Under the pieces are notes generated by a model, which searched no databases, was not told the origin of the DNA, and saw nothing but the letters and a program-made list of their open reading frames with translations. The position numbers were made by a program, and so were the translations under genes. A stretch of 46,185 nucleotides of DNA from a virus (Duplodnaviria > Caudoviricetes), in IMG/VR virus record IMGVR_UViG_3300012844_000024, positions 1-46,185 of that record. One strand, given 5' to 3'. Shown piece after piece: positions 1,186 through 34,965 of the stretch; position 1 is the first letter of the stretch; each line of letters opens with the position of its first letter.

Positions 1186-1343
1186 GAGTAATACCCCTCA
1201 ACGTCAATTAGGATTCTTCCGTCAGGCGCTTTACGCCAGACCATGTGCTTCGGCCATTTGCCGTCGCGGATTTTGGTCCTTATGGCGTCAGGTGTGTAGC
1301 CAGATTCTCGGGAGAATTGTTCCACGGTCTTGTATCGGACCAT
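1065..1343 (-). CDS. xis: Excisionase
   Basis: MVRYKTVEQFSRESGYTPDAIRTKIRDGKW...WRKAPDGRILID winged-helix pattern; overlaps the int 5' end; GAGG upstream of ATG 1343. Confidence 0.8.
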   Translation of the reverse strand: MVRYKTVEQFSRESGYTPDAIRTKIRDGKWPKHMVWRKAPDGRILIDVEGYYSWVEMGEASGPRLQVVSKSHSNTRASGAGSGSSSSPPPLT

Positions 1344-1354
1344 TGCGGGCCTCC

Positions 1355-1531
1355 TCAGGCTAAGAAGCGGTGCCCGACCTTCGCCGCCCGGGCGGCTTCC
1401 TCGGTGCGGAACATGAGCTGGGTTTTGCAGGTGCTGCCCCAGGCGTTGTACTCGACATCGACCCACCAGTGGCCGAACTTGCGGTACGGCTCGCCGAGGA
1501 TCTTCGTGACGTAGCAGTCGATCAGGTTCAT
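1355..1531 (-). CDS. Hypothetical phage protein (58 aa)
   Basis: MNLIDCYVTKILGEPY...; GGAG RBS; in the leftward operon. Confidence 0.7.
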   Translation of the reverse strand: MNLIDCYVTKILGEPYRKFGHWWVDVEYNAWGSTCKTQLMFRTEEAARAAKVGHRFLA

Positions 1532-1568
1532 GGATGGCTCCACGCCGCCAGTGGCGGCAGGTTGGCGG

Positions 1569-1946
1569 TCAGGCCATGGCCGCAGTGATGGTCCGCTCGA
1601 AGCGCGAAGCCAGTTCGGCGTTGACCTCGGCCTTTGCCAGGCTGTCGGCGGTGCCCTTGGCACGGTGCAGGGCTTCGTACTTGCGCAGCTGGGCAGCGGC
1701 TTCGATCAGATCCCTCAGCAGCAGGGGCGCCGCGGCGATCAGCTTGGCGTTGGCCCGGCGCAGATCCCGGCTGAGTTCAGCAGGTCCGATCTCGGTGAAG
1801 GTCACGCAGTCGCCGCAATCAGCGATCATCCAGCCGTCAGAGGGAAGCGCCTTCACGCCATCACCACTGTCGGCGCCCAGGCCGGTGAAGACCTCGGTTT
1901 CGTTCAAGACTTCCCATGGGCCGGGCGTGTGTTTGTGATTCGTCAT
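1569..1946 (-). CDS. Hypothetical phage protein (KHTPGPW...ANAKLIAAAP family)
   Basis: Motifs KHTPGPW and ANAKLIAAAP are common in phage early ORFs; GGAGAG RBS. Confidence 0.8.
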   Translation of the reverse strand: MTNHKHTPGPWEVLNETEVFTGLGADSGDGVKALPSDGWMIADCGDCVTFTEIGPAELSRDLRRANAKLIAAAPLLLRDLIEAAAQLRKYEALHRAKGTADSLAKAEVNAELASRFERTITAAMA

Positions 1947-2000
1947 GGCAATAGCTCTCCATGCCCGCGCATGTCAGCGGGCTTGAGTTTTAGGGGGGGG

Positions 2001-2774
2001 TTAAGCGCGCGCTTCGAACAGGTCGATCTGCGCCGCCGGGGTATCGCGGATGGTGATGGCATCGGCAACACGCTGCTGGGCGGTACCGAAGTGCGCCTCG
2101 TCCTGCTCAATGCCGATGAAGCGCCGGCCCAGCTGGATGCTGGCGACGCCGGTCGTGCCGCTGCCCATCGTGTTATCGAGCACTACCTGGCCGGGGTTGG
2201 TGTAGGTAGCGATCAGAAACCGCATCCAGCTGACTGGCTTTTGAGTCGGATGGAAGCTGCCGGTCTGCTTATCGCTCGAGAAGAACTGCACCGAGCGCGG
2301 GTACCGGTCCGTGGAGTCGTACTCGGTGAGCGACAGGGCCTTGCCGTAGCACTCCGAGTTGACCGTCTTGCGCTTGGCTGTGCGCCGCTCGTGGCCGCTG
2401 GTCATTTGTGGGTTGTACACAGGCTGTCGGCGGTAGAAGACCTGGGCGCTTTCATGGGCCCGCAGTGGCTGCTTCTTGGCGTTGAGGAAGCCGGTTGCGT
2501 TGCCTTTTTCCCAGATCCACTCGTAGCGGTAGTCGCGAGGGTTGCTGGCTACCACCAGCGAACTGAACGGCTGGGCCGCGCAGAGAACGATGGCCGCTTC
2601 GGGCTTGGCAATTCTAAAGTACTGCTCCCACAGGGGGGCAAAAGGAATCACCACATCCCAAGCGCACTGCGTTGTGCCATAGGGCAGATCAGCCAGCACC
2701 AGGTCGACGCTGGCGTCTGGGATCGACCTCATCACCTCCAGGCACTCGCCGTGGTACAGGCTGACTTCGCTCAT
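2001..2774 (-). CDS. Orphan N6-adenine/N4-cytosine DNA methyltransferase, beta class
   Basis: Motif IV DLPY precedes HPTQKP and the SAM motif DNTMGSGTTG. Confidence 0.92.
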   Translation of the reverse strand: MSEVSLYHGECLEVMRSIPDASVDLVLADLPYGTTQCAWDVVIPFAPLWEQYFRIAKPEAAIVLCAAQPFSSLVVASNPRDYRYEWIWEKGNATGFLNAKKQPLRAHESAQVFYRRQPVYNPQMTSGHERRTAKRKTVNSECYGKALSLTEYDSTDRYPRSVQFFSSDKQTGSFHPTQKPVSWMRFLIATYTNPGQVVLDNTMGSGTTGVASIQLGRRFIGIEQDEAHFGTAQQRVADAITIRDTPAAQIDLFEARA

Positions 2775-2821
2775 CGCGGCCCCCTGTAGATCAGGTAGGC
2801 CATGTAGGCGAGGGCGATCAT
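2771..2821 (-). CDS. 16-aa hydrophobic minigene MIALAYMAYLIYRGPR
   Basis: ATGA overlaps with both flanking genes and fills the gap exactly. Confidence 0.45.
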   Translation of the reverse strand: MIALAYMAYLIYRGPR

Positions 2822-3198
2822 GCTGCCTCCTGCATGCTGACCGGCTCAGCGCCATCGGCAAGCAGAATGCGCATGCCGATCTCCTTAGCAATGTGCACCT
2901 CCAGACGAGCGCCGCGCGACCGCGACCAGCCCGGTAGCAGCATCATCGCTTCGCAGGTCGAGAGCCGGCCGATATCGAAGCGCAGATAGTCCTCCCACTC
3001 GGCACCGTTGACGTGGCCGTGCTCGGCCGGGTTTTCAACGTGCCAGCCCTCGGCGCGCATGGCCGCAGCCATGGCATGGAAAGCCGGGAAGTTGAACTCG
3101 GGTAGGCCGGTCATGGGTCCGGCGATGTAGACGCGCTTGGTCCGATCTTCGGTGAGAAGCACGGTGCGCTCTGCGCTGGTTACAGAAGATTCAGTCAC
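2818..3198 (-). CDS. DUF4406-like protein (nucleoside deoxyribosyltransferase-like fold)
   Basis: RVYIAGPMTGLPEFNFPAF...NPAE...LPGWSRSRGARLE. Confidence 0.85.
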   Translation of the reverse strand: MTESSVTSAERTVLLTEDRTKRVYIAGPMTGLPEFNFPAFHAMAAAMRAEGWHVENPAEHGHVNGAEWEDYLRFDIGRLSTCEAMMLLPGWSRSRGARLEVHIAKEIGMRILLADGAEPVSMQEAA

Positions 3199-3446
3199 AG
3201 CTGATACCTCTCATCAATCCAACGCCCAGGCGCCAGTGCGGGTGTAGGTTCGGGTTGTGTTTCGTGCGGGGAGAGCTGGCGATCGTTGCCGGCCTGCAGC
3301 TGGCTGTCCGGGATGCAGCTGATGCCGACCCCGTTGGGCAGGTAGCAGGTGACGCCGCGCTGGCTGTCGTGCTGCACGTCGATGACGTTCTCGGTTGCGC
3401 TGGCGCCGGTGGCCAGCAGCAGGAGGCAGAGGGCGAGGCGAGTCAT
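3195..3446 (-). CDS. Small secreted protein with signal peptide
   Basis: MTRLALCLLLLATGASA signal; HDSQRGVTCY...GISCIP. Confidence 0.75.
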   Translation of the reverse strand: MTRLALCLLLLATGASATENVIDVQHDSQRGVTCYLPNGVGISCIPDSQLQAGNDRQLSPHETQPEPTPALAPGRWIDERYQL

Positions 3447-4033
3447 GCCTGGGCCTCCTGGCGCTCGCTGGCAACCATATCGATGAATGCTTGGGGCAGT
3501 TCAACCGCTTCGAAGCCTGGCGACCAGGACAATGGCGGGCACTTGGCGATCATTTCGTTAAGCAGCTCGAACGCAGCAAGCAGCTGATCGTCATTCACCT
3601 CGCCGTCTTCCGGCAGGTCATCGCAGAAGTGGTCGTTCGGATCGATCTGCCTGGGATAGTTCGGGGTGCAGAAAACCAGCCTCAGGTCGGCCAGGTCCAC
3701 TTCATGCTCGATGAGGTAGTCCCGCAGATCTTCCTCGTCGAAGAAGTACTGGTCGCCGTCGTATTCAGTGATCGCTTCGCCGGCCCACAAGCGCTTAGGC
3801 ATGGCTGCGAACTTGGCAGCCCGGCTCTCTGCATGACAGGTCTCGCACCACCCGTTCGTTGCATGAATGGGATGCTCCGGGTTTTTGGCGCAGCGCCGAT
3901 GCGTTGACCCGCAGTAGCGGGCCATGTGCTCGTCCTTCCCCCAGAACCGGCCGGAAGGATCGACCCAGCCAGTAACGGTCTGGATGCTGGCGGCTTCGGG
4001 GGATTCGTACATCACGACTTTTTCTTCGCACAT
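3443..4033 (-). CDS. Hypothetical phage protein, Cys/His-rich N-terminus
   Basis: 196-aa ORF with AAGGA RBS; coupled to the next gene. Confidence 0.85.
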   Translation of the reverse strand: MCEEKVVMYESPEAASIQTVTGWVDPSGRFWGKDEHMARYCGSTHRRCAKNPEHPIHATNGWCETCHAESRAAKFAAMPKRLWAGEAITEYDGDQYFFDEEDLRDYLIEHEVDLADLRLVFCTPNYPRQIDPNDHFCDDLPEDGEVNDDQLLAAFELLNEMIAKCPPLSWSPGFEAVELPQAFIDMVASERQEAQA

Positions 4034-4114
4034 GGTGATTCCTTGGCCGCCATATCGCGGCAGTGAATAGAGGGGAGAGGGGTTACATCTGGGCGGAGCA
4101 CAAATGTGCTCCAG

Positions 4115-4492
4115 TCAGGATTTCTTCTTGGCCTGGCGCGCCTTGAAGCGTTCGTATGGGCCGTCAGGCAAGTCGGCGATGGCGTTGGCAGCCTTGATCA
4201 GCAGGTCACCCAAGGCGGTGCGAGCCTTCGGCACAAAAGCTCTGTACCGTGTGCCGGGCGGGTAATAGGCAGACCACCCCATGCGGCTGCAGAGCTCCTA
4301 CGCTTCGTTAAGTCCGGCATTGCGGCCATCGGCGAAGGCCTTGGCACGGCGCGGGTCCATCCACTCGAGCTCGCCGTTGACCAGCTGATCTATACGCTGA
4401 TCGCGCTCGGTAAGATCGGCCTGGAGCTTAGCGACGAGCCGCTCCAGGTGGTCGCTTTGATTCTGGTCAGGCAGTTGGGTCTGGCTGTTCAT
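4115..4492 (-). pseudogene. Hypothetical gene split by an in-frame TAG at 4298-4300
   Basis: Frame continues NEA*ELCSRMGW...RQAKKKS to TGA at 4115-4117. Confidence 0.6.
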
Positions 4493-5121
4493 AGCTGCCG
4501 CTCCAAGGCGCCTCTCGCTACCGTGCCATCCTCGATGAAGTCCGGCTCCTCGCCACGCCACAGAATGTTCAGGGGCTCGCCGCTCACGGTGTCCCAATCA
4601 CCACTCTCGAAGTGGTAATGCTCGCGGTCAGCGTAGAACTTCAGGGCAGCGCGCAGCCGCTCAACCTCGCCAGGATCGGCTTGGGCGAAAACATCTCGCA
4701 CTGGGTATCCAGCGTCCTCAGTGTTCTTCCGGTGATCCTTGATACGGTCGTCACCGTTCCACCACTTTCCGTCTTGGTAGAACTGCCAACCCGCCGGCTC
4801 GCTCTGGCGCTGCTCGGCAGGTGCTGCGCCGGTCATCGGCCCCAGGCCAACAATCGGCAGCCCAGTCGCCGCCGCATCCCGCTCTGCCTCTTCTTTGGTC
4901 CACCAGATGGCAGTACCAACCATCCAGGCTATAGGCTCGGGGTGGGGCTGCGGGGCTGGCGCTGCGGCAAGCATCGCGCGCCATGTCGGGAAAATCCCGT
5001 TCACTTCTTGCGCTGCAGCCAGCATTTTGCGCGTTGGCTCGCGCGGCACGCTTACCATATCGATGATCCCCTCGATATGGTCATGCTGCTCGATGGTGCT
5101 GGATCGGTTTTCTGTGGGCAT
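4489..5121 (-). CDS. Hypothetical mosaic phage protein
   Basis: VPREPTRKMLAAA / WRAMLAAAP / EPIAW modules typical of phage early genes. Confidence 0.8.
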   Translation of the reverse strand: MPTENRSSTIEQHDHIEGIIDMVSVPREPTRKMLAAAQEVNGIFPTWRAMLAAAPAPQPHPEPIAWMVGTAIWWTKEEAERDAAATGLPIVGLGPMTGAAPAEQRQSEPAGWQFYQDGKWWNGDDRIKDHRKNTEDAGYPVRDVFAQADPGEVERLRAALKFYADREHYHFESGDWDTVSGEPLNILWRGEEPDFIEDGTVARGALERQL

Positions 5122-5142
5122 GGGTGTCTCCTGCTGGCGGCG

Positions 5143-7035
5143 TCAGGCCGCCAGGCGCTGGTAGAGTTCGATGAGGTCGGATGCGTTCGCCGCGACAAGG
5201 GCCCGGGCTTCGTCCTTGCAGACACTGTTGCCCAGCAGCTTCACCTGGTCAGTCTTGCTGATGGCTTTCCAGTAAAGCTGGCCGGTCACTTCATCGAGGA
5301 ACAGGCCTCGGTCGATGATGTAGTCCGGTCGGAAGCCTTGGGCGCGTTTCAGCTCGTGCGGCTGCAGCATGCGCAGGGTAATGTCGATCAGCACGTAGTC
5401 GCCGACCATGACGAGATCGGCGTGCTCGGTGAAGTGCTGCGGCAGGTATTTGCGGAGAAACGCCGCACACTTGCGGGCACTGGCCAGTTGTTCGTCTGTC
5501 AGCGTGTGGCTGTGTAACTGGACGACCTCAACCACAGCCATGCGATCCTTGGACGGGATCGTGTGGGCCGGCTCGCGAAGTGAGATCCCGTCCTTCTCGG
5601 CACCGTAGTACTTCACCATGTAGGCAGTGACCAGGCGCTGATTTGAGCCTTTGCCTAGGACGGTCGAAAACGGATCGTCAGCTGCGCGGCCGTCGCCCTT
5701 ATAGAAGCCACCATTGGCCTGCTCCAGGTGGGCGGAAGCGATAGCGTGGTGACCGCTGTTCTGCGTTATGCAACTGAGAGGGCCGCTTGTGGCACTACCC
5801 ACGCAGCCCTTGCGTAACGTCACTAGGGAGGCAGAAACCAGTGCCTGCTCACCGCGATTGGCGCCTGTTACCGTCATGGCACGGTCCGTGGCAGGGTAGC
5901 CTGATCGATCGCCATGGTGCGTCAGGTGTGTCAGATGCGCGCCGACCAACGCAAAGTGGCCTCCCTTGACTTGAGCAACTTGGGTTCGCAGTGGCTCAAG
6001 AGTGTCGAAAGTGCGCTGGGTCGACCCATTCGCATGCTCAGTAAGGCATCCCGCCATCGCCATCGTCGGCTGAACCAGGGCGTGATGGGTACCGCCACCG
6101 CTGATGGTCGAGGCTGGCTCATCGACGCTGTGCGTGCTGGTGTGCGCCTTCGAGGTTCCGCGCAGCGGGACTATGAACGGGTCATTGCAGGCCAGGGTGT
6201 GCCGCCACAGGCCTTTGGCGATCCGGTTCATGGTGTTCTCCACCAGAGCATCGTCGCGGAAGATCGTGCGGCCCTGCAGCTCCCAGTCAATGCACTCGGC
6301 GGCGGATCGCCAGGCCTGCTGACCCTTGCCGGGGGTCTTGTGATGCGTCGGCGCGGGCCAGACGATTGGCTTGCCGTCGCGCCGGGCGATGCCGTACAAG
6401 CGCTTGCGAATCGTAGGCGCGCCTTGGTCGGCTGCGACGCGCACCTGGTGCTCGAAGTTGTAGCGCAGGCCGCGCACCAGTGCTTCCTTGGGTACGTGGT
6501 CGCCGATTTCGGCCAAGATCTCAGGCAGGTCTGGGTGATCCTCTGGAATCCCCTTGCCCAGGACGTTCACGAACGCTTGGAATGTCCGGCCCTTTTCGGC
6601 TTTGACCGGCTTGCCCTCATCGTCGAGCGGCCCCCAGTCGGCAAACTCCTCCACGTTTTCGAGGAAGATCAGTCGCGGGCGCGTCTGGTATGCCCACCGG
6701 ATGATTACCCATGCCAGGCCGCGAATTTTACGGTCGCGTGGCTTCCCGCCTTTGGCCTTGCTGTGGTGCCGGCAGTCCGGCGATGCCCACAAGATGCCGA
6801 CCGGCTGACCTTTGGTAGCCAGGACCGGGTCGACCTCGAAAACATCCGCCACGTAGTGCTCGGTCTGCTGGTGGTTGGCGCGGTGCACGGCCAGGGCGAT
6901 TGGGTTGTGGTTTACCGCCACATCCGGCTCGCGGTACACCTCGGCGATGCCGCTGCTGGCGCCGCCGCCACCGGCGAAGAGATCGACGACCAGCTCCTTT
7001 TCGAAGGGCAGGGCGAGGGAGGTCATACAGGTCAT
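5143..7035 (-). CDS. Orphan C5-cytosine DNA methyltransferase with expanded variable region
   Basis: DLFAGGGG (I), ASPDC (IV), LENV (VI), RKRLY (VIII), ELKRAQGF (IX), LGNSV (X). Confidence 0.95.
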   Translation of the reverse strand: MTCMTSLALPFEKELVVDLFAGGGGASSGIAEVYREPDVAVNHNPIALAVHRANHQQTEHYVADVFEVDPVLATKGQPVGILWASPDCRHHSKAKGGKPRDRKIRGLAWVIIRWAYQTRPRLIFLENVEEFADWGPLDDEGKPVKAEKGRTFQAFVNVLGKGIPEDHPDLPEILAEIGDHVPKEALVRGLRYNFEHQVRVAADQGAPTIRKRLYGIARRDGKPIVWPAPTHHKTPGKGQQAWRSAAECIDWELQGRTIFRDDALVENTMNRIAKGLWRHTLACNDPFIVPLRGTSKAHTSTHSVDEPASTISGGGTHHALVQPTMAMAGCLTEHANGSTQRTFDTLEPLRTQVAQVKGGHFALVGAHLTHLTHHGDRSGYPATDRAMTVTGANRGEQALVSASLVTLRKGCVGSATSGPLSCITQNSGHHAIASAHLEQANGGFYKGDGRAADDPFSTVLGKGSNQRLVTAYMVKYYGAEKDGISLREPAHTIPSKDRMAVVEVVQLHSHTLTDEQLASARKCAAFLRKYLPQHFTEHADLVMVGDYVLIDITLRMLQPHELKRAQGFRPDYIIDRGLFLDEVTGQLYWKAISKTDQVKLLGNSVCKDEARALVAANASDLIELYQRLAA

Positions 7036-7118
7036 GTTGTGGTCCTTGCGTGCAGGCGCCGCCCTCGCCGGGGAGGCGTTATCGTTGAATAGGGGAAGGC
7101 GCTGGCGGGCAGCGCTGG

Positions 7119-7481
7119 TCAGGCGTTGGCGAGCAACAGCAGGCCGGTGTCGTCCGGGTCGTCGCCGAGCATCAGGTCAGAGGCGCGTAGCTCGCGGCCG
7201 ATGCGGAACTGATCAAGCCGTCGCGCCACAAAATCCGAAACAACAATTTCGTGGCGCGGCGCACTGAGGAAATGGCGGGCCGCTTCAGGCCCTAATTCAT
7301 GGATGCGGTGGATCAGCAGGGTCATGGCCTCGCCGTTTTCCTCGACCTGGGCCCATTCCATGATTTCGGCCAGGGCCTGGCGGGTGCCCGGGCGGGCTTT
7401 CATGCGCAGGTCTTCTTCCTGTAGGCGTTCGGCCTTGGCCCTGCGTTTCTCGTCACGCTGCTGCTGCGTCAGAGCCATCAT
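7119..7481 (-). CDS. Hypothetical phage protein
   Basis: ORF with GGAGG RBS in the leftward operon. Confidence 0.75.
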   Translation of the reverse strand: MMALTQQQRDEKRRAKAERLQEEDLRMKARPGTRQALAEIMEWAQVEENGEAMTLLIHRIHELGPEAARHFLSAPRHEIVVSDFVARRLDQFRIGRELRASDLMLGDDPDDTGLLLLANA

Positions 7482-7818
7482 CGCCTCCATTGCGCAAGAA
7501 GGTGGAGCCCGGCCCGATGTCGAGTAGGTCGCAAACCCGGTTGATGATCTTGAGCGCGGCGTCGAACACCTTGGCGTCGTCAGGCTCGCGGGCCAGGCGC
7601 TTCATGTTTGGCTGGTGCTCCAGGCAGACCTTGTCGACCAGGCGCCGGGCCAGTCGGCGCAGGTGATCGGCGCTGTCGTGCTCCCGCAGGCTCAGCGCAA
7701 AGGCTAGGGCCACATCATCAGGCCGGTACTGTCCGCCGCTGCGGGTGTTGTACAGCTTCTTGACCGGCCGATTCATCCAGGCCGGCAGGGTGACGACTCC
7801 AGAGGGTGCTTTCTGCAT
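7453..7818 (-). CDS. Hypothetical phage protein
   Basis: 121-aa ORF, AAGGAG RBS. Confidence 0.75.
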   Translation of the reverse strand: MQKAPSGVVTLPAWMNRPVKKLYNTRSGGQYRPDDVALAFALSLREHDSADHLRRLARRLVDKVCLEHQPNMKRLAREPDDAKVFDAALKIINRVCDLLDIGPGSTFLRNGGDDGSDAAAA

Positions 7819-7903
7819 GTCTGTGCTCCTTGAGGCCGCTGGGCGGCAGGTGGAACTGTTCTTGCCGCCGGCGCTGGCGGACCAGGTTGTTGATCCGCCT
7901 CAT
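7718..7903 (-). CDS. Possible Arg-rich small protein
   Basis: ATGA-coupled to the upstream gene, but overlaps the next gene by about 100 nt. Confidence 0.4.
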   Translation of the reverse strand: MRRINNLVRQRRRQEQFHLPPSGLKEHRHAESTLWSRHPAGLDESAGQEAVQHPQRRTVPA

Positions 7904-8088
7904 GCCGCGCTCGCCGCGTCGATCTGCTCGGTGATCTCAAACAGCTGCTGAGTCAGGTTCTCGATGGTCGCAGCGCCGCGCACACGTTCGGCGCGACTCC
8001 ACTGGCAGCTACGGTTGAACAGCAACTGCAGGTTCTGCTCCAGTTCCTTTCGGCGGTGGAGCAGGTCGAGGATGGTGGCGAGTGACAT
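7900..8088 (-). CDS. Hypothetical coiled-coil protein
   Basis: 62-aa ORF directly after ssb. Confidence 0.7.
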   Translation of the reverse strand: MSLATILDLLHRRKELEQNLQLLFNRSCQWSRAERVRGAATIENLTQQLFEITEQIDAASAA

Positions 8089-8090
8089 GG

Positions 8091-8615
8091 CTATGCACCT
8101 GCCAGGTGGTGGAGCGGGGCAAATGGGATATCGTCGTCGAAGCTTTCCTGGTCGGGCGGCGCGGCCTGCTGGTTCTGGTGCGGCGCCTGGCGCTGCTGGC
8201 TGTACTGCTGGCGAGGCTGCTGCCGTTGCTGCTGGGGCTGGCGCTGTTGCTGCTGACCACCGCCCTGGTTATCCGGCCGGCCGCCCAGCAGCTGCAGGGT
8301 GCCGTTGATGTCGACGTGCACCTCTGTGGCGTAACGCTTGACGCCGTCCTTCTCCCATTCCCGGGTTTTCAGCTTGCCCTCGATGTAACACTGGGAGCCC
8401 TTGCGCAGGTACTCGCCGGCGATCTCAGCGACCTTGCCGAACATCACCACGCGGTGCCATTCGGTCTTCTCGATCTTTTGGCCGGTCTGTCTGTCGTTCC
8501 ACGATTCGCTGGTGGCCAGGCTCAGATTGGTGACCGCGTTGCCATTGGGCAGGTAACGGACCTCGGGATCCTGGCCGCAGGCTCCGACCAGGATTACTTT
8601 GTTGATGCCCCTCAT
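8091..8615 (-). CDS. ssb: Single-stranded DNA-binding protein
   Basis: [21 protein letters not shown]; Q-rich linker; acidic DDDIPF tail. Confidence 0.97.
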
Positions 8616-9472
8616 GCTGCTTTCTCCGCGAGTTCGGCTTTGCGTTGATCTTTGGCGGCGTTCAGCTTCGCCAGGTGGTCAGGTGATTGCTCAAGGATTC
8701 GGTACGCGGCCGAGTACACGCTCTGCAGCTCCTGCATGGTCTCGGTGAGCGGGATCTTTGATAGAGCATCCTGCAGCGCAGTGGCCTGCAGATCGGCCTG
8801 CGATTTGCCGTCATTGAGCCAAGCCAGCAGGCGCCGCCCGGTTTCTTCGCTTATCACCTCGGGCTGGTCGAATAGCTTCGTCCGGTCCTTGCTGGCGATG
8901 GCGGCGTGGCCGTCGTGGGTGATGTCGAGCACCACAGTGAACTCGTAATCGGTGCCGTCCCGCTGCTCGGACTTCATGCCGAGCTTGATCACCTTCTTGC
9001 CTTCACCCTGGACCGTCTCGGTTTTGCTCCGCATGGTGCAGATGATGTGCAGCGGACTGGTCAGGATCTTGTCGGTCAGCTTGCGATGGCGCGGCGTGGT
9101 TTCGTTCCAGGCAGCCCAGGTGTTGCCTTTGAACTTCTGGTGCGCGAGTTTCTCGTTCGACTCCAGGCATCCGCCGGAACCGGTCCATTCGTGCGAGTAG
9201 CTGTCGATGATCAGCACGCCATACCCGGCCTGCTCAGCGGCAGTGATTGCTTCGGCGTAGCGCTCCGGCGAGTAGGGCGCGTGCAGCTCCAGCACATCGA
9301 AGTCGGCGATGTCGGCGTACAGCGATGCGCTGCCGTGCTCGGTGTCGATCACCGCGATCCGACCGCCCAGGCCCTTGGCCATGAGCAGCGCGGAGAAGGT
9401 CTTTCCAGACCCCGATGGCCCAGCAAGTGCCAGCCGTAGCTTGGCCTGCTTGCGTTCGGCTTTCTTGAACAT
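8612..9472 (-). CDS. AAA_24 / Sak4-like single-strand annealing ATPase
   Basis: Walker [13 protein letters not shown], Walker B LIIDS; adjacent to ssb. Confidence 0.88.
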
Positions 9473-9481
9473 GGGGTGCCC

Positions 9482-9628
9482 TCAGTTCGGTTGGTTGTCC
9501 CACTGCCGCTCAATGCGAGCGGCCTCGTCTTCGTACTCTTTGCGCTCTTCGCCCTGATACCGCTCAGGCGAGAACGATCCGACCGTCATCCAGTCGAGCT
9601 GGGCGGCCAGGCGGGGTGTTGTGTTCAT
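9482..9628 (-). CDS. Hypothetical 48-aa protein
   Basis: Hand translation MNTTPRLAAQLDW...WDNQPN; GAGG RBS. Confidence 0.6.
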   Translation of the reverse strand: MNTTPRLAAQLDWMTVGSFSPERYQGEERKEYEDEAARIERQWDNQPN

Positions 9629-9635
9629 GGTTGCC

Positions 9636-9752
9636 TCAGGAAGTGATGCAGCCCGCGTACGCGCTGGCGAGCATCCAAGCAGTGCAAAGTGAAAGGGTGA
9701 AGAAGCCCCCGCGCCACATGGCGAATCGCCTGGCGCGCTGGTAGCCGGTCAT
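9636..9752 (-). CDS. 38-aa single-pass membrane peptide
   Basis: Hand translation MTGYQRARRFAMWRGGFFTLSLCTAWMLASAYAGCITS; ATGA-coupled. Confidence 0.55.
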   Translation of the reverse strand: MTGYQRARRFAMWRGGFFTLSLCTAWMLASAYAGCITS

Positions 9753-9943
9753 GGGCGCACCCGGACAGCAATGCGCCGACCCTTCATGGTGGCTCCGAGG
9801 CGGCGGGTCAGGCTGGAGACTGGTGTCTCTCGTGGCAGACCGACGGCCTCGTTAAACGGCAGGCCGAAGCTGATCACCGCCAGGGTGCGCTCGATCTGCT
9901 CAAGCTGCTCATCAATGAGCGATTTCACAGGCGCGGTACTCAT
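9749..9943 (-). CDS. Hypothetical protein
   Basis: MSTAPVKSLIDEQL...; ATGA-coupled chain. Confidence 0.7.
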   Translation of the reverse strand: MSTAPVKSLIDEQLEQIERTLAVISFGLPFNEAVGLPRETPVSSLTRRLGATMKGRRIAVRVRP

Positions 9944-10170
9944 GCCACCCTCCCGTTCGCTTCCAGCCATGCTTCGTTGTTGCGGGCGATCGCCCGGTTC
10001 AAGCGCTCCGTGTAGCTGCGCTGCTTGGGCAGGTCGATTGCGCCGGTCAGCCCGGCCAGGTCGATCGCCATCATCAGCTCACCGCGCAGGCCCTCACTGA
10101 ATGAGGCGTCAATCGCCTCGAAGCGAGAGTCGATGATGGCCACAACCTCTTGGCGTGTGCCTCTGTTCAT
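9940..10170 (-). CDS. Hypothetical protein
   Basis: MNRGTRQEVV...; GGAGG RBS. Confidence 0.7.
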   Translation of the reverse strand: MNRGTRQEVVAIIDSRFEAIDASFSEGLRGELMMAIDLAGLTGAIDLPKQRSYTERLNRAIARNNEAWLEANGRVA

Positions 10171-10421
10171 GCTGTCCTCCGGGCGGCGCCTGAGCCGCAC
10201 ATGGCTTCCATCTTGTCGAGCGCCGAGGCGATCACCCGGCGGCTTTCAGTCCGCTGGCGCTCGTCGCGCTCACGGATCATCGTGTTCCAGGCCTGGTTGT
10301 TAGCCCTTGCCTGCGTTGAGGTGAGGTGGTCTGCCCAGGACGTGTCACCAAACAGCTGGTACTGGCGGTCGACCTCGCGCGCCTGGGCGCTGTCCGCGTA
10401 CAGTTCATGCTCGCGACTCAT
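10167..10421 (-). CDS. Hypothetical protein
   Basis: 84 aa; GGAGG RBS. Confidence 0.72.
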   Translation of the reverse strand: MSREHELYADSAQAREVDRQYQLFGDTSWADHLTSTQARANNQAWNTMIRERDERQRTESRRVIASALDKMEAMCGSGAARRTA

Positions 10422-10441
10422 GGTCGCCTCCAGGTGGTGGG

Positions 10442-10711
10442 TTACTCGGTGGGTGGGGAAGGGAGTGGATGCCAGTGCGTTGGCGCGGTAGTGATCCGGC
10501 CATGCATATCAACCCAACGCGGCTCGCGGCCTTTCTCTGTCTTGTTGTACATCTGTCGCTCATATCGCAACGGTCGAACAGACCCTTCCTGGAGGGCGAT
10601 TACCGTTTCCCCGCAACCCCAATTAGGCTTGCCTTCCAAACTTGGCAGCCTGTCGCTGCACTTGATCCAGCCGGCGCCGGCGCTCGGTTGCCATTTCCAT
10701 ATCCAAATCAT
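10442..10711 (-). CDS. DUF551-like protein
   Basis: WIKCSDRLP...THWHPLPSPP signature; GAGGAG RBS. Confidence 0.8.
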   Translation of the reverse strand: MIWIWKWQPSAGAGWIKCSDRLPSLEGKPNWGCGETVIALQEGSVRPLRYERQMYNKTEKGREPRWVDMHGRITTAPTHWHPLPSPPTE

Positions 10712-10907
10712 GTCGCTCCTCGCTGATCAGCTCAGCTACGGCACTTTCGATTTGGGCCATGGCCTGCTGCTCGTCAGCGGCGCGGCGAATCATCACGCGC
10801 AGCAACTGAATGGCCGCATCAAGGCGTGTTGGGTAGACATGGGCCGAAAAGCCGCTGCCTGAAGGCTCCTGAACCATGACCTGGCCGGAAACGTTCATTC
10901 CGCTCAT
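10623..10907 (-). CDS. Hypothetical protein
   Basis: MSGMNVSGQV...; GAGGA RBS after a hairpin; overlaps the next gene by 89 nt. Confidence 0.6.
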   Translation of the reverse strand: MSGMNVSGQVMVQEPSGSGFSAHVYPTRLDAAIQLLRVMIRRAADEQQAMAQIESAVAELISEERHDLDMEMATERRRRLDQVQRQAAKFGRQA

Positions 10908-10921
10908 TGGGTGATCCTCAG

Positions 10922-10997
10922 GACCGCATTGGCCAGGAGCCAGGCGCGGGTGACCAAACCCACCGTGAAAGGTGGCCTGGCGCCTGCCAATGCGGTC
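10922..10997 (-). other. Long intergenic stem-loop with branched top
   Basis: GACCGCATTGGC (10922-10933) / GCCAATGCGGTC (10986-10997) plus inner complementary arms. Confidence 0.7.
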
Positions 10998-11024
10998 GTT
11001 ATGTGAAGGGAAGGGGATGCGGGA

Positions 11025-11170
11025 TGCATCGGGGTGTGAACTGGCAGGAGCCAATCTCTGCATCGACCGGTGTTCGCTCCTCCCGATCTCGCTGGATAGA
11101 AGCTGTGCTGCTTGGCGGCAGGATTCAGTTCACACTCCGATGCAGCCTGCGATGGGGAGCAGGGCATCGG
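11025..11170 (-). other. 19-bp inverted repeat with a competing upstream hairpin
   Basis: 11025-11043 pairs with 11126-11144 (1 mismatch); a second GCATCGG copy at 11164-11170. Confidence 0.7.
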
Positions 11171-11203
11171 GCAGTTAACGGCAGGCGGCCGTGGCGCTGG
11201 TTG

Positions 11204-11398
11204 TCACTGTTGCTCTGCGGCGTCGGCAAGAGCCCTGAGCTGAGTCGCGCTGATGAAGATGGGCGCCTCGGCATCTTCAATCTCAAGGCAAATCCCGACT
11301 TCGGTACCGGTCCGGACCAGGGCAAAGCCTGGCTCGATTTCAAGCTGACCGCAGGCATGGCTGTTTTGGGCTTTCACTTCTTCGAAAACTTCGTTCAT
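11204..11398 (-). CDS. Hypothetical acidic protein
   Basis: 64 aa; GGAGG RBS. Confidence 0.65.
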   Translation of the reverse strand: MNEVFEEVKAQNSHACGQLEIEPGFALVRTGTEVGICLEIEDAEAPIFISATQLRALADAAEQQ

Positions 11399-11424
11399 CG
11401 CTTTGCCCTCCGGGGCGGTTGATT

Positions 11425-11991
11425 TCAGGTTGCGGCGAGCTGATCCGCCCTATCCAGAAGGGCAGCGCAGACACGCTCATCGAATCGGTCGGTGGTACGG
11501 TATTGGTCGACCGCTTGCCGGATGACGCCGGCCTTGGCTGTGGCCCAGGCCCTGTGCGCTTCGTGCGGGCAGTCAAAGCTGCCTACGCTGGTGCGGCTCC
11601 CATCCAGCCAGTGAACCCTTGCCATGAATGGCTTTCCGCGCCGAGTGCGAGCCACGCCTACGGGCAGATCACCGCGCTGGGATGGCCTGTCGATTGCCAG
11701 ATTGTTCAGGATGCTTGGCACGAACACCGACGTTTCCGGTCGGTAGATCTTCTCGCCGGGGCTCAAGATGTCCTTGTCCAGGTGATTGCCATGCCATGGC
11801 TGCTGTTCCATCCACGCCTTGAAGGCGCTGAACCGAAGCCACTGCTCGGCCACTTGGCATCCCTCATAGTGGCGGTCATCGCGCTCACCGAAGCAGCGCC
11901 GGAGAAGCCCTTTCCACCTGCTGTAGAACGGGCAGTTGTGATAGCGGGGCAGATCGTTGATACCGACCCCAAGAACCAATGCTCTTCCCAT
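11425..11991 (-). CDS. HNH-like homing endonuclease with AP2-like C-terminal domain
   Basis: YSRWKGLLRRC..W..FSAFKAW..HLDKD..YRPETSVFV..LNN; LPVGV...GSFDCPHEAHRAW. Confidence 0.75.
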   Translation of the reverse strand: MGRALVLGVGINDLPRYHNCPFYSRWKGLLRRCFGERDDRHYEGCQVAEQWLRFSAFKAWMEQQPWHGNHLDKDILSPGEKIYRPETSVFVPSILNNLAIDRPSQRGDLPVGVARTRRGKPFMARVHWLDGSRTSVGSFDCPHEAHRAWATAKAGVIRQAVDQYRTTDRFDERVCAALLDRADQLAAT

Positions 11992-12069
11992 GGGGACCTC
12001 CTGTGCATCAAAGCCGCCTCAGTGAAGTGGCTTTGATGCCGGCCCTGTCGCCAAGGCCAGCCAGTGAAA

Positions 12070-12270
12070 TCACACTGTGCGCTCCAGCACGCAGCATTCC
12101 TCGTAATGAGCCATCGCAATCGGCATGTGGTGGCTGTCGAGCGGCCATTTGCTGACGATGCAGCCTTGGCCGGCTGGGCAGTGGAAGACGAAAAGCTCCT
12201 CTGCGTCCTTGTCCATCTCCATGCTCACCCGTGCACCGCTGGTGAAGGAGTCCTCGATGATCGTGGTCAT
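12070..12270 (-). CDS. Hypothetical protein, first gene of the pL operon
   Basis: 66 aa; GGAGGA RBS. Confidence 0.7.
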   Translation of the reverse strand: MTTIIEDSFTSGARVSMEMDKDAEELFVFHCPAGQGCIVSKWPLDSHHMPIAMAHYEECCVLERTV

Positions 12271-12506
12271 GCTGTGTTCCTCCAGTGGATTCCCAAAGCA
12301 CCCGGTCGCCCAGGTGCTTCAGTGAATCGTTCTGTCCCATTACCGCCGGGATGGCGGGGCGCATTGCATGCCCGGGTCGTTCTCTCGGTTTAGGCGTTTC
12401 ACCTTCGTCAGCCGTACAGGGTTGTCCCTGTCGTGGGCAGCCTTTCGGGGCTGTCTGATCGCCGGTCGCCGGTAGAGGCAATGCGGTCTGTTGGTTGTTG
12501 CGCTGG

Positions 12507-12519
12507 TTGTTAAAGAGCG
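12507..12519 (-). promoter_or_regulatory. boxA antitermination element (nutL-like)
   Basis: Minus strand CGCTCTTTAACAA matches the boxA consensus; preceded by hairpin GAGGC-CCTCAA-GCCTC. Confidence 0.8.
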
Positions 12520-12569
12520 GTGAGGCTTGAGGGCCTCCGCAGTCCCTGGTGAGTGACTGCGATGGGCGA

Positions 12570-12611
12570 ACAATACCGCCGGTATTTCATGCGGTCAATA
12601 CCTCCGGTCAT
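12570..12611 (-). promoter_or_regulatory. pL promoter with operators oL1/oL2
   Basis: Minus strand TTGACC-17nt-TATTGT; operators AATACCGCCGGTATT (12572-12586) and AATACCTCCGGTCAT (12597-12611). Confidence 0.85.
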
Positions 12612-12628
12612 GTTTTTCTTCCGCCCAC

Positions 12629-12653
12629 AAAAAAGCCCGCGCTAGGCGGGCTT
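12629..12653 (-). terminator. Intrinsic terminator after the lipoprotein gene
   Basis: GCCCGC/GCGGGC stem with U-tract on the minus strand. Confidence 0.8.
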
Positions 12654-12670
12654 CCAGTAGTGCTGCCGGA

Positions 12671-12979
12671 TCACTCGTCAGGACTTGGCTTGGCGATGAA
12701 ATCCTTCGGGATGTACGGCACCTTGGTGACCTTCCCGTCCTTGGTCTCAAACGAGACGGACTTGGCGCCCCCGAACGCGGTCGCGTGGCTGTACACCCAC
12801 ATCTGGCCTTCCTCTCGGGATGTGACCATGTAGGGGTTGCCCATGATCTCGTAGAGCTGATCTTCGGTCATGCCGACCTTAACCTGACTGGCCTGGCCGA
12901 AGGTGAATGGCGTTCCCGCGCATCCGGCCATGGTTACGACTACAGCCACTAGAAGGAATCGGCGGATCTGGTGAATCAT
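12671..12979 (-). CDS. SmpA/BamE-like outer-membrane lipoprotein
   Basis: Lipobox MAGC; VKVGMTEDQLYEIMGNP...WVY motif. Confidence 0.82.
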   Translation of the reverse strand: MIHQIRRFLLVAVVVTMAGCAGTPFTFGQASQVKVGMTEDQLYEIMGNPYMVTSREEGQMWVYSHATAFGGAKSVSFETKDGKVTKVPYIPKDFIAKPSPDE

Positions 12980-14136: not shown

Positions 14137-14955
14137 CTACAAATCACCGCCGCGCCAGATCACTTTCCCGATGATCCGATGCTCATTGCCGTTGCTACGC
14201 AGGTGCGAGCGATCCGGATGCTCCCCCTTGTCCTCGTTGTCGCTGCGCAGCACCCATTGGCCAAGTGGGCCTTGTATCAGGCGCTTCACGATCGCACCAT
14301 CAGAGCCAGCCAGGACGAACACCTGGCCATCAGCTGGATCGATGCGGGACCGATCAACCAGCAGCACGTCACCATCATTGATGGTCGGCCACATGCTCTC
14401 GCCCTCGGCATAAATCACGATCAGCTGGTCTGCCTTTGCGCCTTTGACCTTAAGCCATTCGCGCTTGAACGCTAGGGTCGAGCGGATTTCGACATGCGGG
14501 TTCTCGCTGCCCAGGCCGGCAGCCGCTTTTGCATCGTACTGAGGTACGTAGGCGTATTTGCCGTCTAATTCTTCTTCGTCAGAGCCTTCCGGAAGAGGGG
14601 AGGCGGCAGGCGTCTGGCCTACATGTTCAAGGGGTTCGCTCCACTCCTTGGTGGGAGTTCCGACATTGGGATGGTAAAGCAGTGCATCCAGATCCTCTGC
14701 CAGTCTTGGACTGAATGCAGATACCGGCACCTGCAGGGCCTTTGCAAAAACCGAGGCCGCGCGGAGGCTTAGCGCAGTGCGCCCATTCATGAAGTGACTG
14801 ACAGCACCCTGCGTGACGCCATCGCCAAGCTCTGCGGCGATACGATCTTGTGTAAGGCCAAGCTCAGCGCGCTTCGCAGCGTAAAGGGCTTTCAGGCGCT
14901 TGCTGTCCTCCACCTGCCAATCAGCGAGTGGGACTTTTCGAGAGTTTTTCGTCAT
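14137..14955 (-). CDS. cI: CI-like repressor (HTH + S24 autopeptidase)
   Basis: LTQDRIAAEL..VTQGAVSHFMNG HTH; AAAG cleavage site; GESMWP serine and IVKRL lysine. Confidence 0.95.
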   Translation of the reverse strand: MTKNSRKVPLADWQVEDSKRLKALYAAKRAELGLTQDRIAAELGDGVTQGAVSHFMNGRTALSLRAASVFAKALQVPVSAFSPRLAEDLDALLYHPNVGTPTKEWSEPLEHVGQTPAASPLPEGSDEEELDGKYAYVPQYDAKAAAGLGSENPHVEIRSTLAFKREWLKVKGAKADQLIVIYAEGESMWPTINDGDVLLVDRSRIDPADGQVFVLAGSDGAIVKRLIQGPLGQWVLRSDNEDKGEHPDRSHLRSNGNEHRIIGKVIWRGGDL

Positions 14956-16228: not shown

Positions 16229-16293
16229 CCGTCCGATCCCTAATTAGGGACCCGGGCGCCAGTCCCTCATAAGGGACGCCAAATCGCAGAGAC

Positions 16294-16319
16294 AAAAAAG
16301 CCGGGTTCGCGGCCCGGCT
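16294..16319 (-). terminator. Minus-strand terminator (oop/t0-like position)
   Basis: AAAAAA-GCCGGG...CCCGGC. Confidence 0.65.
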
Positions 16320-16349
16320 CTCTGCAATACACAACTTGTGAAGGGAATT

Positions 16350-17210
16350 ATGCATATGCAGACCCAAAGTGTACAGGCCCTCAACCGGCCCGCGCCACAA
16401 AATGCGAGACTCGATTCTGTGGTGCGCAATTCTGATGTGATCCCGTTCGACTTCGATGGGGCCGCTGTCCGCGTCATCACCGATGAGATCGGCGATCCAT
16501 GGTTCGTAGCAAACGACATCGCCGTGGCCCTGGGCTATGCCAAGCCAGAAAACGCAGTGGCCCGGCATTGCAAGGCGGCAACCACTACCCCGAAACAGGG
16601 TGGTGGCTTTATGACCATCATCCCCGAGCGAGATCTGTATCGCCTGGTGATGAAGTCGAAACTTCCTGCGGCTGAGCGTTTTGAAGAGTGGGTCGTTGGC
16701 CAGGTGCTGCCAAGCATCCGAAAGACTGGCGGCTTCTCCGTGCAGGCCCCGAACAACTCCAAGATCGTTGGCGAGCTGGCCATCCTTGAGTGTTTCGACC
16801 GCCTCCTCAAGCCGGCGCCGTCCAGCAAAATGCAGATGCTGACCAAAATCGCTGAGAACAACGGCCTGAATGCCCAGTTCCTGCCTGGGTATGCGGTTGA
16901 TGCCGCCCCCGATTCGCCTGATGGCTCCAGCATGGCCTCCAAGCCGCTGACCGCGCTCCTCAAGTTGCACGGCATGAAGTGCTCGGCTGCGCCGTTCAAC
17001 TGGAAGCTGCGCGACGCAGGGATCATCAAGCAGATGTCCCGGGTGAACTCGAAGAAGGAGACCGTCTACTTCTGGTCGATCACCGAGAAGGGCCTGCGCT
17101 ACGGCAAGAACCTGACCAGCCCCCAGTGCCCCCGCGAAACCCAGCCGCATTGGTATGAGGATCGCTTCGCCGAACTGGCCGACCTGATCGTCTCCGGGGG
17201 TGCAGCATGA
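16350..17210 (+). CDS. Antirepressor, Bro-N plus KilAC-like domain
   Basis: FDFDGAAVRVI..PWFVANDIAVALGY..AERFEEWVVGQVLPSIRKTG; C-terminal FWSITEKGLRYGKNLTSP..TQPHWY. Confidence 0.88.
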   Translation: MHMQTQSVQALNRPAPQNARLDSVVRNSDVIPFDFDGAAVRVITDEIGDPWFVANDIAVALGYAKPENAVARHCKAATTTPKQGGGFMTIIPERDLYRLVMKSKLPAAERFEEWVVGQVLPSIRKTGGFSVQAPNNSKIVGELAILECFDRLLKPAPSSKMQMLTKIAENNGLNAQFLPGYAVDAAPDSPDGSSMASKPLTALLKLHGMKCSAAPFNWKLRDAGIIKQMSRVNSKKETVYFWSITEKGLRYGKNLTSPQCPRETQPHWYEDRFAELADLIVSGGAA

Positions 17211-21106: not shown

Positions 21107-21249
21107 CACCAGCATGGGGATTCTTGATTTTGGCCACCCTCATGGTAGTGGGCGGTGTGGCGTTGTCCTGGGCGGGCGCGGTTCGCCGCAAGCGGTACTA
21201 CGAAGAATTCATTTTGAGCAAGGCCAGGCGGGCAGGGGGTGGGCAATGA
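21103..21249 (+). CDS. 48-aa membrane peptide
   Basis: Hand translation MTPAWGFLILATLMVVGGVALSWAGAVRRKR...; ATGA-coupled at both ends. Confidence 0.6.
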   Translation: MTPAWGFLILATLMVVGGVALSWAGAVRRKRYYEEFILSKARRAGGGQ

Positions 21250-21926
21250 ACTATCAGAACGTGGTATCGGCAGTGGTCCGCGCACTGGCGGCCGAGACGA
21301 TCAACAGCGCCGGTGGCTGCAATGTCGAACCGCGCGTGCAGGCGAGCAAGCTCAAGGGCGAGATCTCTGGTAAGGATGCCGCACTGCTTGCTGACTCGAT
21401 CGTGCACAAGCTGCTGCATGCCCAGCTCAGCCCGCGACACTGGAATGCCCTGGTGGCGAAGTACAGCACGCACAAGGGGCGGAAGATCGATTCCATTGGG
21501 CGATTGGTTGCCATCGTGCCAACCCCGGCGCCGAAGCGCTTCACTCAGCAGGCAGTTCTGGTCTGGGCGGTACCGCAGCAAACGAAGGGCATTCAGCGCA
21601 AGGTGCCGCAGTTCAAGGCGCCTGACCCTCTCGAAAACGAACGGGAAGGGCAGTGGGATTGGCGAAACAAGGCTGCTGCTGCCGCCGCTGAGCGCGCCAA
21701 CAAGCACGCCCGGGCCGTGGCCGAGGTGAAGCCGGGGGAGATGATCGTCCTGGCCGAGTCGAACTACGACATGACCAATTGGGATTCACAAGGCCTGACC
21801 GAGCGCACTTACCAGCGCTGGAATCGGGCCATCAAGGGCGCTCTGGAGGCGCTGGTGAATGAGGCGCTGACCGAGGCGCAGCACATGCTTGAGGCGATTG
21901 GCGTTTTATCCGGTGAGGCGGCATAG
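21246..21926 (+). CDS. Putative late antiterminator (Q-position protein)
   Basis: Lies after ninG and before the late promoter; C-terminal HTH-like GLTERTYQRW. Confidence 0.65.
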   Translation: MNYQNVVSAVVRALAAETINSAGGCNVEPRVQASKLKGEISGKDAALLADSIVHKLLHAQLSPRHWNALVAKYSTHKGRKIDSIGRLVAIVPTPAPKRFTQQAVLVWAVPQQTKGIQRKVPQFKAPDPLENEREGQWDWRNKAAAAAAERANKHARAVAEVKPGEMIVLAESNYDMTNWDSQGLTERTYQRWNRAIKGALEALVNEALTEAQHMLEAIGVLSGEAA

Positions 21927-25418: not shown

Positions 25419-25425
25419 GGCCACC

Positions 25426-27901: not shown

Positions 27902-27903
27902 AC

Positions 27904-27927
27904 AGCCGGCCATGAGCCGGTTTTTTT
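27904..27927 (+). terminator. Intrinsic terminator
   Basis: AGCCGGC/GCCGGTT plus T-tract. Confidence 0.75.
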
Positions 27928-27969
27928 ACGCCCGCGGCTGAGCCAACGGCAAATCATCCGGGGGATGAC

Positions 27970-28665: not shown

Positions 28666-28671
28666 GGCCCC

Positions 28672-29724: not shown

Positions 29725-29766
29725 TCCACCCGGGGCGGTTCGCCGCCCCAATCAGGAGATGAACGC

Positions 29767-29937
29767 ATGGCTACCCCGAAAACTGGCAAGGGCCTGCCCC
29801 GATCCATGAAGAATGCAAAGCCCGCAGCGTCGACCGTGCAGGTTGCCGCAGATGCAACCAACGGCGTCACTGCTGGCGACCTTCAAGCCACCATCAGCGC
29901 GCTGGCCGCGCGGATCAAAGCACTGGAGAGCGCGTGA
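29767..29937 (+). CDS. Putative head decoration/fibre peptide (56 aa)
   Basis: Hand translation MATPKTGKGLPRS...LAARIKALESA; AGGAG RBS. Confidence 0.6.
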   Translation: MATPKTGKGLPRSMKNAKPAASTVQVAADATNGVTAGDLQATISALAARIKALESA

Positions 29938-30347: not shown

Positions 30348-30386
30348 CACCGGGGCTTCGGCCCCATTCATCTCAGCGGAGGCCTG

Positions 30387-30779: not shown

Positions 30780-30781
30780 CC

Positions 30782-31162: not shown

Positions 31163-31164
31163 CC

Positions 31165-31955: not shown

Positions 31956-31964
31956 GAGGCAAGC

Positions 31965-34945: not shown

Positions 34946-34965
34946 CCTCCGGAAAGACAAACAAC

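Follow-up and report, generated by a model that had tools for sequence, protein, structure and literature searches.

Leaders that begin with a boxA element are known from several systems. NusB, NusE (S10), NusA, NusG and SuhB assemble on boxA, protect long untranslated transcripts from Rho and help them fold; rRNA operon (rrn) and CRISPR array leaders rely on them without the phage protein N. In phage lambda, pL is followed by nutL (boxA and boxB), a structured leader cut by RNase III, and N, and phage HK022 carries put, an RNA of two hairpins that is found at each early promoter (putL and putR) and does not need Nus factors. The early leader of T7 runs from promoter A3 through boxA and the R0.3 hairpin to gene 0.3; T7 R sites are RNase III processing sites, and we take R0.3 to be one and the T7 boxA to be functional. 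Rfam also holds models of C4-type RNAs. According to the available part of PMC5725501, Nus factors act without N on non-coding transcripts and chaperone rRNA folding, the effect of boxA depends on context, and Nus-dependent translational repression via structured spacers is discussed. The available part of a preprint (10.64898/2026.07.09.737519, citing Stringer 2020) adds that boxA heads CRISPR arrays. Given Nus action without N, the CRISPR array boxA and the T7 boxA, a boxA without N is not new.

Here, we describe the pL leader of a lambdoid provirus. The window, the whole stretch of DNA that was analyzed, comprises 46,185 nt (IMG/VR record IMGVR_UViG_3300012844_000024), a 46-kb provirus record with an estimated completeness of 93%. 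A first-pass annotation had singled out a boxA leader RNA in a phage without recognizable N; this RNA proved to be real, covarying, uncatalogued and placed directly behind a genuine boxA. The first transcribed item in these temperate Pseudomonas phages is a well-conserved RNA fold and not a protein gene.

The leader and its provirus setting

PHROG matches gave a lambdoid layout, with cI (14137-14955, - strand), rightward cro, antirepressor, P, ninB and ninG genes, and a left operon with HNH, Sak4-like ATPase, ssb and methylase genes. The features of the leader, in order of transcription, were as follows.

12629-12653, - strand: intrinsic terminator ending the cI-side genes, just upstream of pL (GC hairpin and U run; 116 nt before boxA)
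12570-12598, - strand: pL-type sigma70 promoter TTGACC-17-TATTGT (consensus scan; start inferred)
12539-12560, - strand: 5'-terminal hairpin GCAGUC/GACUGC (folding; sequence not conserved, variable between phages)
12522-12537, - strand: hairpin GAGGC/GCCUC directly before boxA (folding)
12507-12519, - strand: boxA CGCTCTTTAACAA, identical to the 12-mer of Pseudomonas rRNA operon leaders
12486-12506, - strand: C/A-rich single-stranded spacer (folding and homologue comparison)
12360-12485, - strand: conserved 126-nt domain closed by CGCAUUGC/GCAAUGCG (folding and covariation)
12478-12485/12360-12367, - strand: helix P1 (covariation)
12469-12474/12369-12375, - strand: helix P2 (covariation)
12462-12464/12386-12388, - strand: helix P3 (covariation)
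12455-12461/12406-12411, - strand: helix P4 (covariation)
12438-12453, - strand: helix P5 (covariation)
12413-12433, - strand: helix P6 (covariation)
12392-12404, - strand: helix P7 (covariation)
12376-12385, - strand: 3' strand NGY-GAAYGAC of a k-turn-like internal loop (column counts; partner CGAC at 12465-12468)
12343-12357, - strand: short hairpin CCGCC/GGCGG following P1 (frequent among homologues but not universal)
12288-12328, - strand: long hairpin with GCGA loop (RNase III-type processing site, predicted by analogy)
12070-12283, - strand: Shine-Dalgarno GGAGG (12279-12283) and first ORF, 66 aa (PHROG 27409, function unassigned there)

All leader elements named in the first-pass annotation (pL, hairpins, boxA, CAA spacer and closed domain) were recovered in place on the - strand, as were two further hairpins downstream of the domain, CCGCC/GGCGG at 12343-12357 and the long one at 12288-12328. 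The pL promoter was the sole promoter-like match on the - strand of positions 1-12700, and its position relative to boxA was the same in homologues; transcription is predicted to start near 12563, with boxA ~44 nt past the predicted +1 on the transcribed strand. The terminator upstream of pL was recovered by a custom scan and missed by a stricter one. Folding of the leader gave a z score of -4.1 (0/200 shuffles as stable), and folding of the 126-nt domain gave -3.0 (1/200 shuffles as stable). The 12288-12328 hairpin (18 bp, -28 kcal/mol) is a long, nearly continuous helix between genes, and 86 of 103 loci had a hairpin of -4 kcal/mol or lower in the 32 nt preceding boxA (a count without shuffle control). 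The first ORF had been called acidic, Cys-rich and not N-like, in agreement with its composition (11 D/E against 4 K/R, with 4 C) and with the lack of a match to any Pfam family.

The boxA was the single match in the window with up to 2 mismatches allowed. Exact copies of GCTCTTTAACAA in three host genomes lay almost exclusively in rRNA operons, paired with a spacer boxA 2 kb further on, and the rrn boxA stood 160 to 167 nt before 16S in 3/3 operons checked. The phage element thus equals the host rrn boxA, lies near the transcript 5' end and is conserved in homologues. As in rrn and CRISPR leaders, the identical 12-mer lies near the start of a transcript rich in untranslated RNA units, here predicted to be processed, and no phage antiterminator protein was found; unlike them, it belongs to a phage early operon in which the cargo, a short uncatalogued RNA, precedes protein genes, and the window has no boxC-like GTGTGGG after boxA as in rrn leaders. 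The 12-mer also occurs in T7, 64 nt past A3, an early promoter for host polymerase; a hairpin and the first gene follow, likewise without N. The T7 leader differs in that no 126-nt multijunction domain (no match to the domain model R1) stands between boxA and hairpin.

Several structured RNAs in the early-left transcript had been suggested, and the 10.9- to 11.2-kb stretch did also beat its shuffles. This second non-coding folded stretch (10900-11204, - strand; z score of -3.7) contains a long imperfect duplex at ~10925-11000, and its matches among GenBank phages were limited to the first ~80 nt (18 records). Past the first ORF, intergenic hairpins of a UUCACUG type lie at 12041-12071 and 12008-12040 (- strand), and the former piece recurs in several RNA runs. 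At 16290-16375 (- strand), antisense to the start of the antirepressor gene, a promoter-like TGTACA-17-CATAAT is followed by an intrinsic terminator; this element looks like a sar-type antisense RNA of ~50 nt. The usual Q position after ninG is held by a 227-aa ORF (21243-21926, + strand; PHROG 3412 of unassigned function, no Pfam match) with relatives in 4 of 13 domain-bearing regions and in phage D3.

Fold and conserved core of the 126-nt domain

The domain has seven helices, in the order P1, 3x1 loop, P2, asymmetric loop, P3, junction, P4 and junction, which form two stacked three-way junctions (P3-P4-P7 and P4-P5-P6); P1 and P2 together make 14 bp. The multibranch domain of the first-pass annotation held, as 12360-12485 covaries, and its third arm, in which the CGG preceding CUGACGA was paired with the CCG that follows AAA, did not. 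Covariation instead places CUGA-CG opposite CG-A-UCAG in P4. P3 is formed by CCG and the 12462-12464 CGG, and P6 is closed by the CG that precedes G-CUGA.

Covariation, put forward earlier as a check on the fold, was present. Of the 29 representatives, 21 were aligned with MAFFT without fitting to a model; the other eight carry insertions. Read against a hand-set structure, this alignment gave 95.4% paired cells and double changes in 20 of 39 pairs, with 0/500 shuffles as high and 26 to 35% for slid structures. In 55 rows aligned with the model, and hence leaning to it, 95.8% of cells were paired and 30 of 39 pairs were doubly changed. The nine pairs of highest corrected mutual information were all model pairs, and mutual information gave no signal of a pseudoknot inside the domain, with no non-nested pair standing out. 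No Rfam model matched at gathering score across the window, so the uncatalogued status of the domain holds; at E values up to 10, positions 10400-12700 gave 4 chance-level matches and no ribozyme or riboswitch. Two motif readings were rejected. The hammerhead-like CUGACGA has its CUGA within helix P4, where it covaries (CUG/CGG, 13 versus 8 rows), and neither a G before AAA nor an Rfam match was found; the GG of candidate CsrA-type GGA loops is base-paired within P6, and several members do not have it.

The strongest conservation lies in the inner loop and junction and not in the P1/P2 stem; the sequence of P1 varies freely while its pairing stays. Bases that are unpaired yet invariant or nearly so are concentrated in the junctions and in the P2/P3 loop, where CGAC faces NGY-GAAYGAC, and the P2-loop-P3-junction core is kept while arms P5 and P6 are replaceable. 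That bases of the loop and junctions are conserved, with no extended unpaired seed, suggests a three-dimensional fold rather than a base-pairing small RNA. The loop of P7 is often a boxB-like GAAAY (~30 to 38 of 55 rows per position) and is not conserved in a third of the members.

The P2/P3 loop keeps the pattern Y-(G/U)-A-C/G-A-R-Y-G-A-C in 53 of 55 rows. A 3-nt bulge, A-(A/G)-Y, is followed by G1b and A1n, invariant in the same 53 of 55 rows; position 2n is G or U, 3b:3n is C:C and 4b:4n is C:G. The C helix departs from the k-turn rule, with G:C and not C:G at -1b:-1n, and a single canonical pair after the loop is followed by a further 3-nt bulge. In the available part of PMC8191799, C:C at 3b:3n goes with good folding, and the inverted G:C at -1b:-1n impairs ion-induced folding. 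By these rules the loop may take up kink-turn geometry; given the G:C at -1b:-1n and the single pair before the further bulge, we infer a k-turn-like element and do not claim a demonstrated k-turn. Among the k-turn orphan motifs of Weinberg et al. (2017), Actinomyces-1 shares the tandem G.A loop, C:C at 3b:3n and C:G at 4b:4n (available part of PMC8191799); the domain differs from those motifs in the inverted -1b:-1n (G:C), its overall fold and the lack of an Rfam match.

Distribution of the domain and exchange of the insert behind boxA

Close homologues of the leader were all from Pseudomonas temperate phages. A blastn search gave 31 GenBank phage records (27 strong; duplicates counted), with conservation confined to boxA and the domain, and a pattern scan of IMG/VR gave at least 120 loci (~440 stretches estimated), with 4 of 130 pattern rows plainly chance. 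A second pattern, taken from the 3' half and not relying on the 5' 12-mer, brought in variants as well as five remnants truncated at the 5' end. Among 151 Pseudomonadaceae genomes the domain model matched in 16, a figure that includes the centre genome and a weak remnant; among 151 class-level genomes it matched in the centre genome only (1/151). In 100 sources checked, matches were restricted to Pseudomonas genome or phage loci, so pattern hits in genome contigs were mostly chance.

A boxA-like match (one mismatch allowed) stood within 135 nt of the domain in 103 of 104 distinct loci, 91 of them with one of three canonical forms; the 104 derive from 111 loci after four were dropped (three chance, one 3'-truncated) and duplicates merged. 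With boxA present in 103/104 loci, the domain was not found away from boxA, and within the window it occurs once, at pL, with no second copy at pR or in the late region. Downstream, 100 first ORFs fell into 57 families, and the distance to the first gene ranged from 51 to 995 nt. The spacer between boxA and domain was short in 71 of 103 loci and long in 32 (45 to 85 extra nt), and the long-spacer inserts were mostly a hairpin and H-type pseudoknot of ~66 nt. This module was seen in L007, L008, L010, L022, L030, L376, L378-L380, L382, L385 and L386, with compensatory changes in both stems by eye (for example CUCCUGG/CCAGGGG, CACCUG/CAGGUG and CAUCGG/CCGAUG) and no Rfam match in L007 and L008; some copies start with an AUG frame of 2 to 3 codons, and in others either the AUG or the stop is missing. 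Within the domain, L019, L030 and L042 carry a hairpin inserted into the P2/P3 loop, and L387, L388, L449 and L467 carry a single hairpin in place of P5/P6. Five loci (L137, L146, L150, L223 and L224) are 5'-truncated, running from the P5 3' strand through P1 only, beside an oppositely oriented gene; they are likely decayed prophage remnants.

The place behind boxA is filled with different uncatalogued RNAs by different phages. Similarity of loci L432 and L471 to the window extends past boxA's end only after a gap: it covers the part up to and including boxA and resumes at the 12328-12288 hairpin, with another insert between; D3 keeps hairpin and boxA and continues with another folded RNA, and at least 5 further insert types stand behind a Pseudomonas-type hairpin and boxA. 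Among 121 phage loci chosen by boxA alone, 30 clustered with the domain family (20 of the first 80 by R1). The domain model had no match in 15/15 whole records with a Pseudomonas-type boxA and other inserts, and with filters off it found nothing better than E 0.65 in lambda, HK022, T7, D3, two host rrn stretches and five other-insert loci. Rfam searches of 20 other loci, including other occupants of the slot, returned only the 4 tRNAs of D3. Other occupants were noted in L426, L431, L432, L453, L460, L471, L485, L492, L496, L509, L527, L539 and D3 (L371:16700-16930). A loop motif common to all occupants was sought and rejected as not enriched (5/40 versus 4.4 expected); L432/L471 and L460/L485 have a similar 3' loop strand, so some of these inserts may be distant cousins of the domain.

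Nine RNA-labeled runs contain the leader stretch. Contigs from five metatranscriptome runs of five studies (X2, X5, X8, X10 and X12) cover the leader, which is weak evidence of presence only, as such contigs give no ends, strand or level; some show other sequences behind the same boxA. In X6 the stretch lies inside a 35-kb contig that may be DNA. Among raw-read runs, X21 gave 0 reads and X24 gave 103, all on short shared hairpins outside the domain. A literature search, whose reach took in little of the primary D3, put and T7 boxA work, found no paper describing the 126-nt domain. PMC10690425, the largest survey of phage RNAs, gave no match in the 3 of 6 supplement files searched, and the domain may be among its 8,495 candidates; the available part of PMC8508860 has no passage on antitermination.

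Comparison with antitermination systems and possible roles

Like lambda, this phage has the order pL, boxA, large folded domain and first gene, and the domain occupies the place of boxB and the N leader. It differs in having no boxB hairpin 7 to 10 nt after boxA (an unpaired C/A-rich spacer lies there), no N, no nutR equivalent (neither a second boxA nor a domain was found on the pR side) and no sequence or structure match to the lambda leader. The N families PF11438 and PF25694 were absent from the 93%-complete provirus record, whereas the lambda N control matched both; Arg-rich ORFs numbered 7, scattered, with none common to loci. Intrinsic terminators are also far fewer than in lambda: the custom scan found 0 in the 9 kb downstream of the window's boxA, against 4 in a 5.5-kb stretch of lambda. 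Across 14 domain-bearing left regions (125 kb; the 9-kb span may overrun some prophages), it found 8 on the sense strand versus 21 on the opposite strand. The terminator before pL was recovered in 9 of these 14 regions, so the scan misses some; a second scan agreed on the scarcity in both early operons.

HK022 put is also a folded RNA that starts the early operon of an N-less lambdoid phage, and a put-like RNA antiterminator had been offered as a precedent. Here the domain is single-copy and not at both early promoters, has seven helices and stands behind a perfect boxA, and R1 with filters off had no match in HK022 25,000-40,751. The put-like reading is weakened by the single occurrence of domain and boxA, at pL only, by the few intrinsic terminators, by other RNAs behind the same hairpin and boxA, and by the T7 boxA without N. 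The second precedent, a c4-type cloverleaf (P1 c4/P4 CI antisense RNA), failed, as no C4-type Rfam model matched and two stacked three-way junctions do not make a cloverleaf. A candidate ncRNA system, also raised at that stage, fits the evidence better than a put-like antiterminator. By its sequence features, the leader agrees with boxA leaders of rrn, CRISPR and T7 type and departs from nut/N, put, c4 and hammerhead.

Our tentative reading, with a probability of about 0.42, is that the exact host boxA recruits Nus factors without N and that the 126-nt domain is an exchangeable cargo RNA, processed free and protein-binding. From what is established for Nus factors, the host complex would load at boxA and protect and fold the untranslated RNA; RNase III, by analogy with T7 R sites, would cut the 12288-12328 hairpin and leave a stable leader RNA of ~250 nt. 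The domain, to judge from its anatomy, would be a compact three-dimensional fold bound by a protein, most likely the host's, and the freed RNA would act alone as a decoy-type RNA in the first moments of infection or induction. Identity of boxA with the rrn element, a covarying fold, fixed position, varying downstream genes, insert exchange, absence of N families and scarcity of terminators are observed. Near-invariant bases in the k-turn-like loop and junction, in place of a long seed, point to a compact fold recognized by protein, and 57 first-gene families argue against gene-specific cis control. The single-copy domain, and the other insert flanked by the same hairpin and boxA and the same downstream hairpin in L432/L471, favor a cargo. 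Against it, the domain was never found away from boxA, and an independent RNA gene might move between slots in the way ORFs do. The raw-read runs also showed no processed ends, and the k-turn-like loop has the inverted pair at -1b:-1n. If the cargo reading is true, the slot is a list of RNA accessory genes, likely directed against host functions or defenses, that protein-centered annotation has missed.

This strict coupling to boxA is explained more naturally if the domain acts in cis, docking on the boxA-Nus-RNA polymerase complex, replacing boxB and N and making transcription processive over the 12-kb left operon, with the other inserts as alternative modules, as boxB plus N and put are among coliphages. 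We hold such docking to be possible, if doubtful. It would suit the site directly behind boxA in 103/104 loci in the place held in lambda by boxB and the N leader, the absence of N36 and N_peptide families, the often boxB-like P7 loop and the context-dependent effect of boxA (available part of PMC5725501), for which the domain could be that context; it would explain early transcription control in lambda-like phages without N. It fits poorly with the few intrinsic terminators available for read-through, a pR operon with neither domain copy nor boxA, unrelated RNAs behind the same boxA, a P7 loop unconserved in a third of members and a ~66-nt pseudoknot that can separate boxA and domain. A broader proposal, on which we are slightly more skeptical still, is that Pseudomonas lambdoid phages swapped protein N for RNA, with boxA-loaded Nus factors and an interchangeable docking RNA; the slot would then be a menu of RNA-only transcription factors, with the 126-nt domain as the commonest module seen here. 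A phage protein unrelated in sequence to N might instead bind the domain. One recurrent left-operon family (7119-7490, - strand; basic N-terminal helix) is present in 9 of 13 regions with the domain. It was counted in 18 of 27 records that carry the domain and is missing from 9/27, but 8 of 15 Pseudomonas-type boxA records lacking the domain have the family too (seven boxA records of unassigned type, with 1 match, left out); we therefore rejected it as the cognate protein. The family could be linked only to a RepB regulator of ribbon-helix-helix type (16% of one cluster), and the body of its product is likely ribbon-helix-helix; no early gene of the window reached more than 8 of 13 diverse domain-bearing regions by tblastn, so that a disguised N of this kind seems very improbable.

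Processing or translation control after the manner of the lambda N leader is unlikely, though less so than such a protein: P1/P2 would form an RNase III frame, and a boxA-Nus loop would hold back first-gene translation, or set its timing, until the cut. The long stem around an inner multihairpin domain in the lambda pL leader, the free sequence and kept pairing of P1, and the Nus-dependent repression via structured spacers discussed in the available part of PMC5725501 speak for this, whereas P1 and P2 make just 14 bp, the inner loop and junction rather than the stem are most conserved, the first gene and its distance (51 to 995 nt) vary widely, and R1 finds nothing in the lambda leader. A new self-cleaving ribozyme or ligand-binding aptamer could also account for the compactness of the fold, its pair of three-way junctions, the k-turn-like loop and the near-invariant bases left unpaired. 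Phage intergenic regions often contain ribozymes, yet the absence of Rfam ribozyme or riboswitch matches even at E 10, the paired and covarying CUGACGA, the lack of a pseudoknot signal and the lack of an expression platform or fixed downstream gene make this improbable. Least credible is a passive structured spacer or recombination module that merely hides untranslated RNA from Rho; the exchangeable insert and the five truncated remnants (L137, L146, L150, L223 and L224) would be expected of it, but mere pairing does not need unpaired nucleotides kept near-invariant across a bacterial family.

Outside these phages, boxA-headed leaders were noted in apparently non-Pseudomonas phages (L422, L425, L444, L446, L488 and L501; T7-like L428, L436 and L441), and several of these have long stretches free of ORFs. 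With ~980 stretches estimated, boxA appears widespread at the early promoters of phages.
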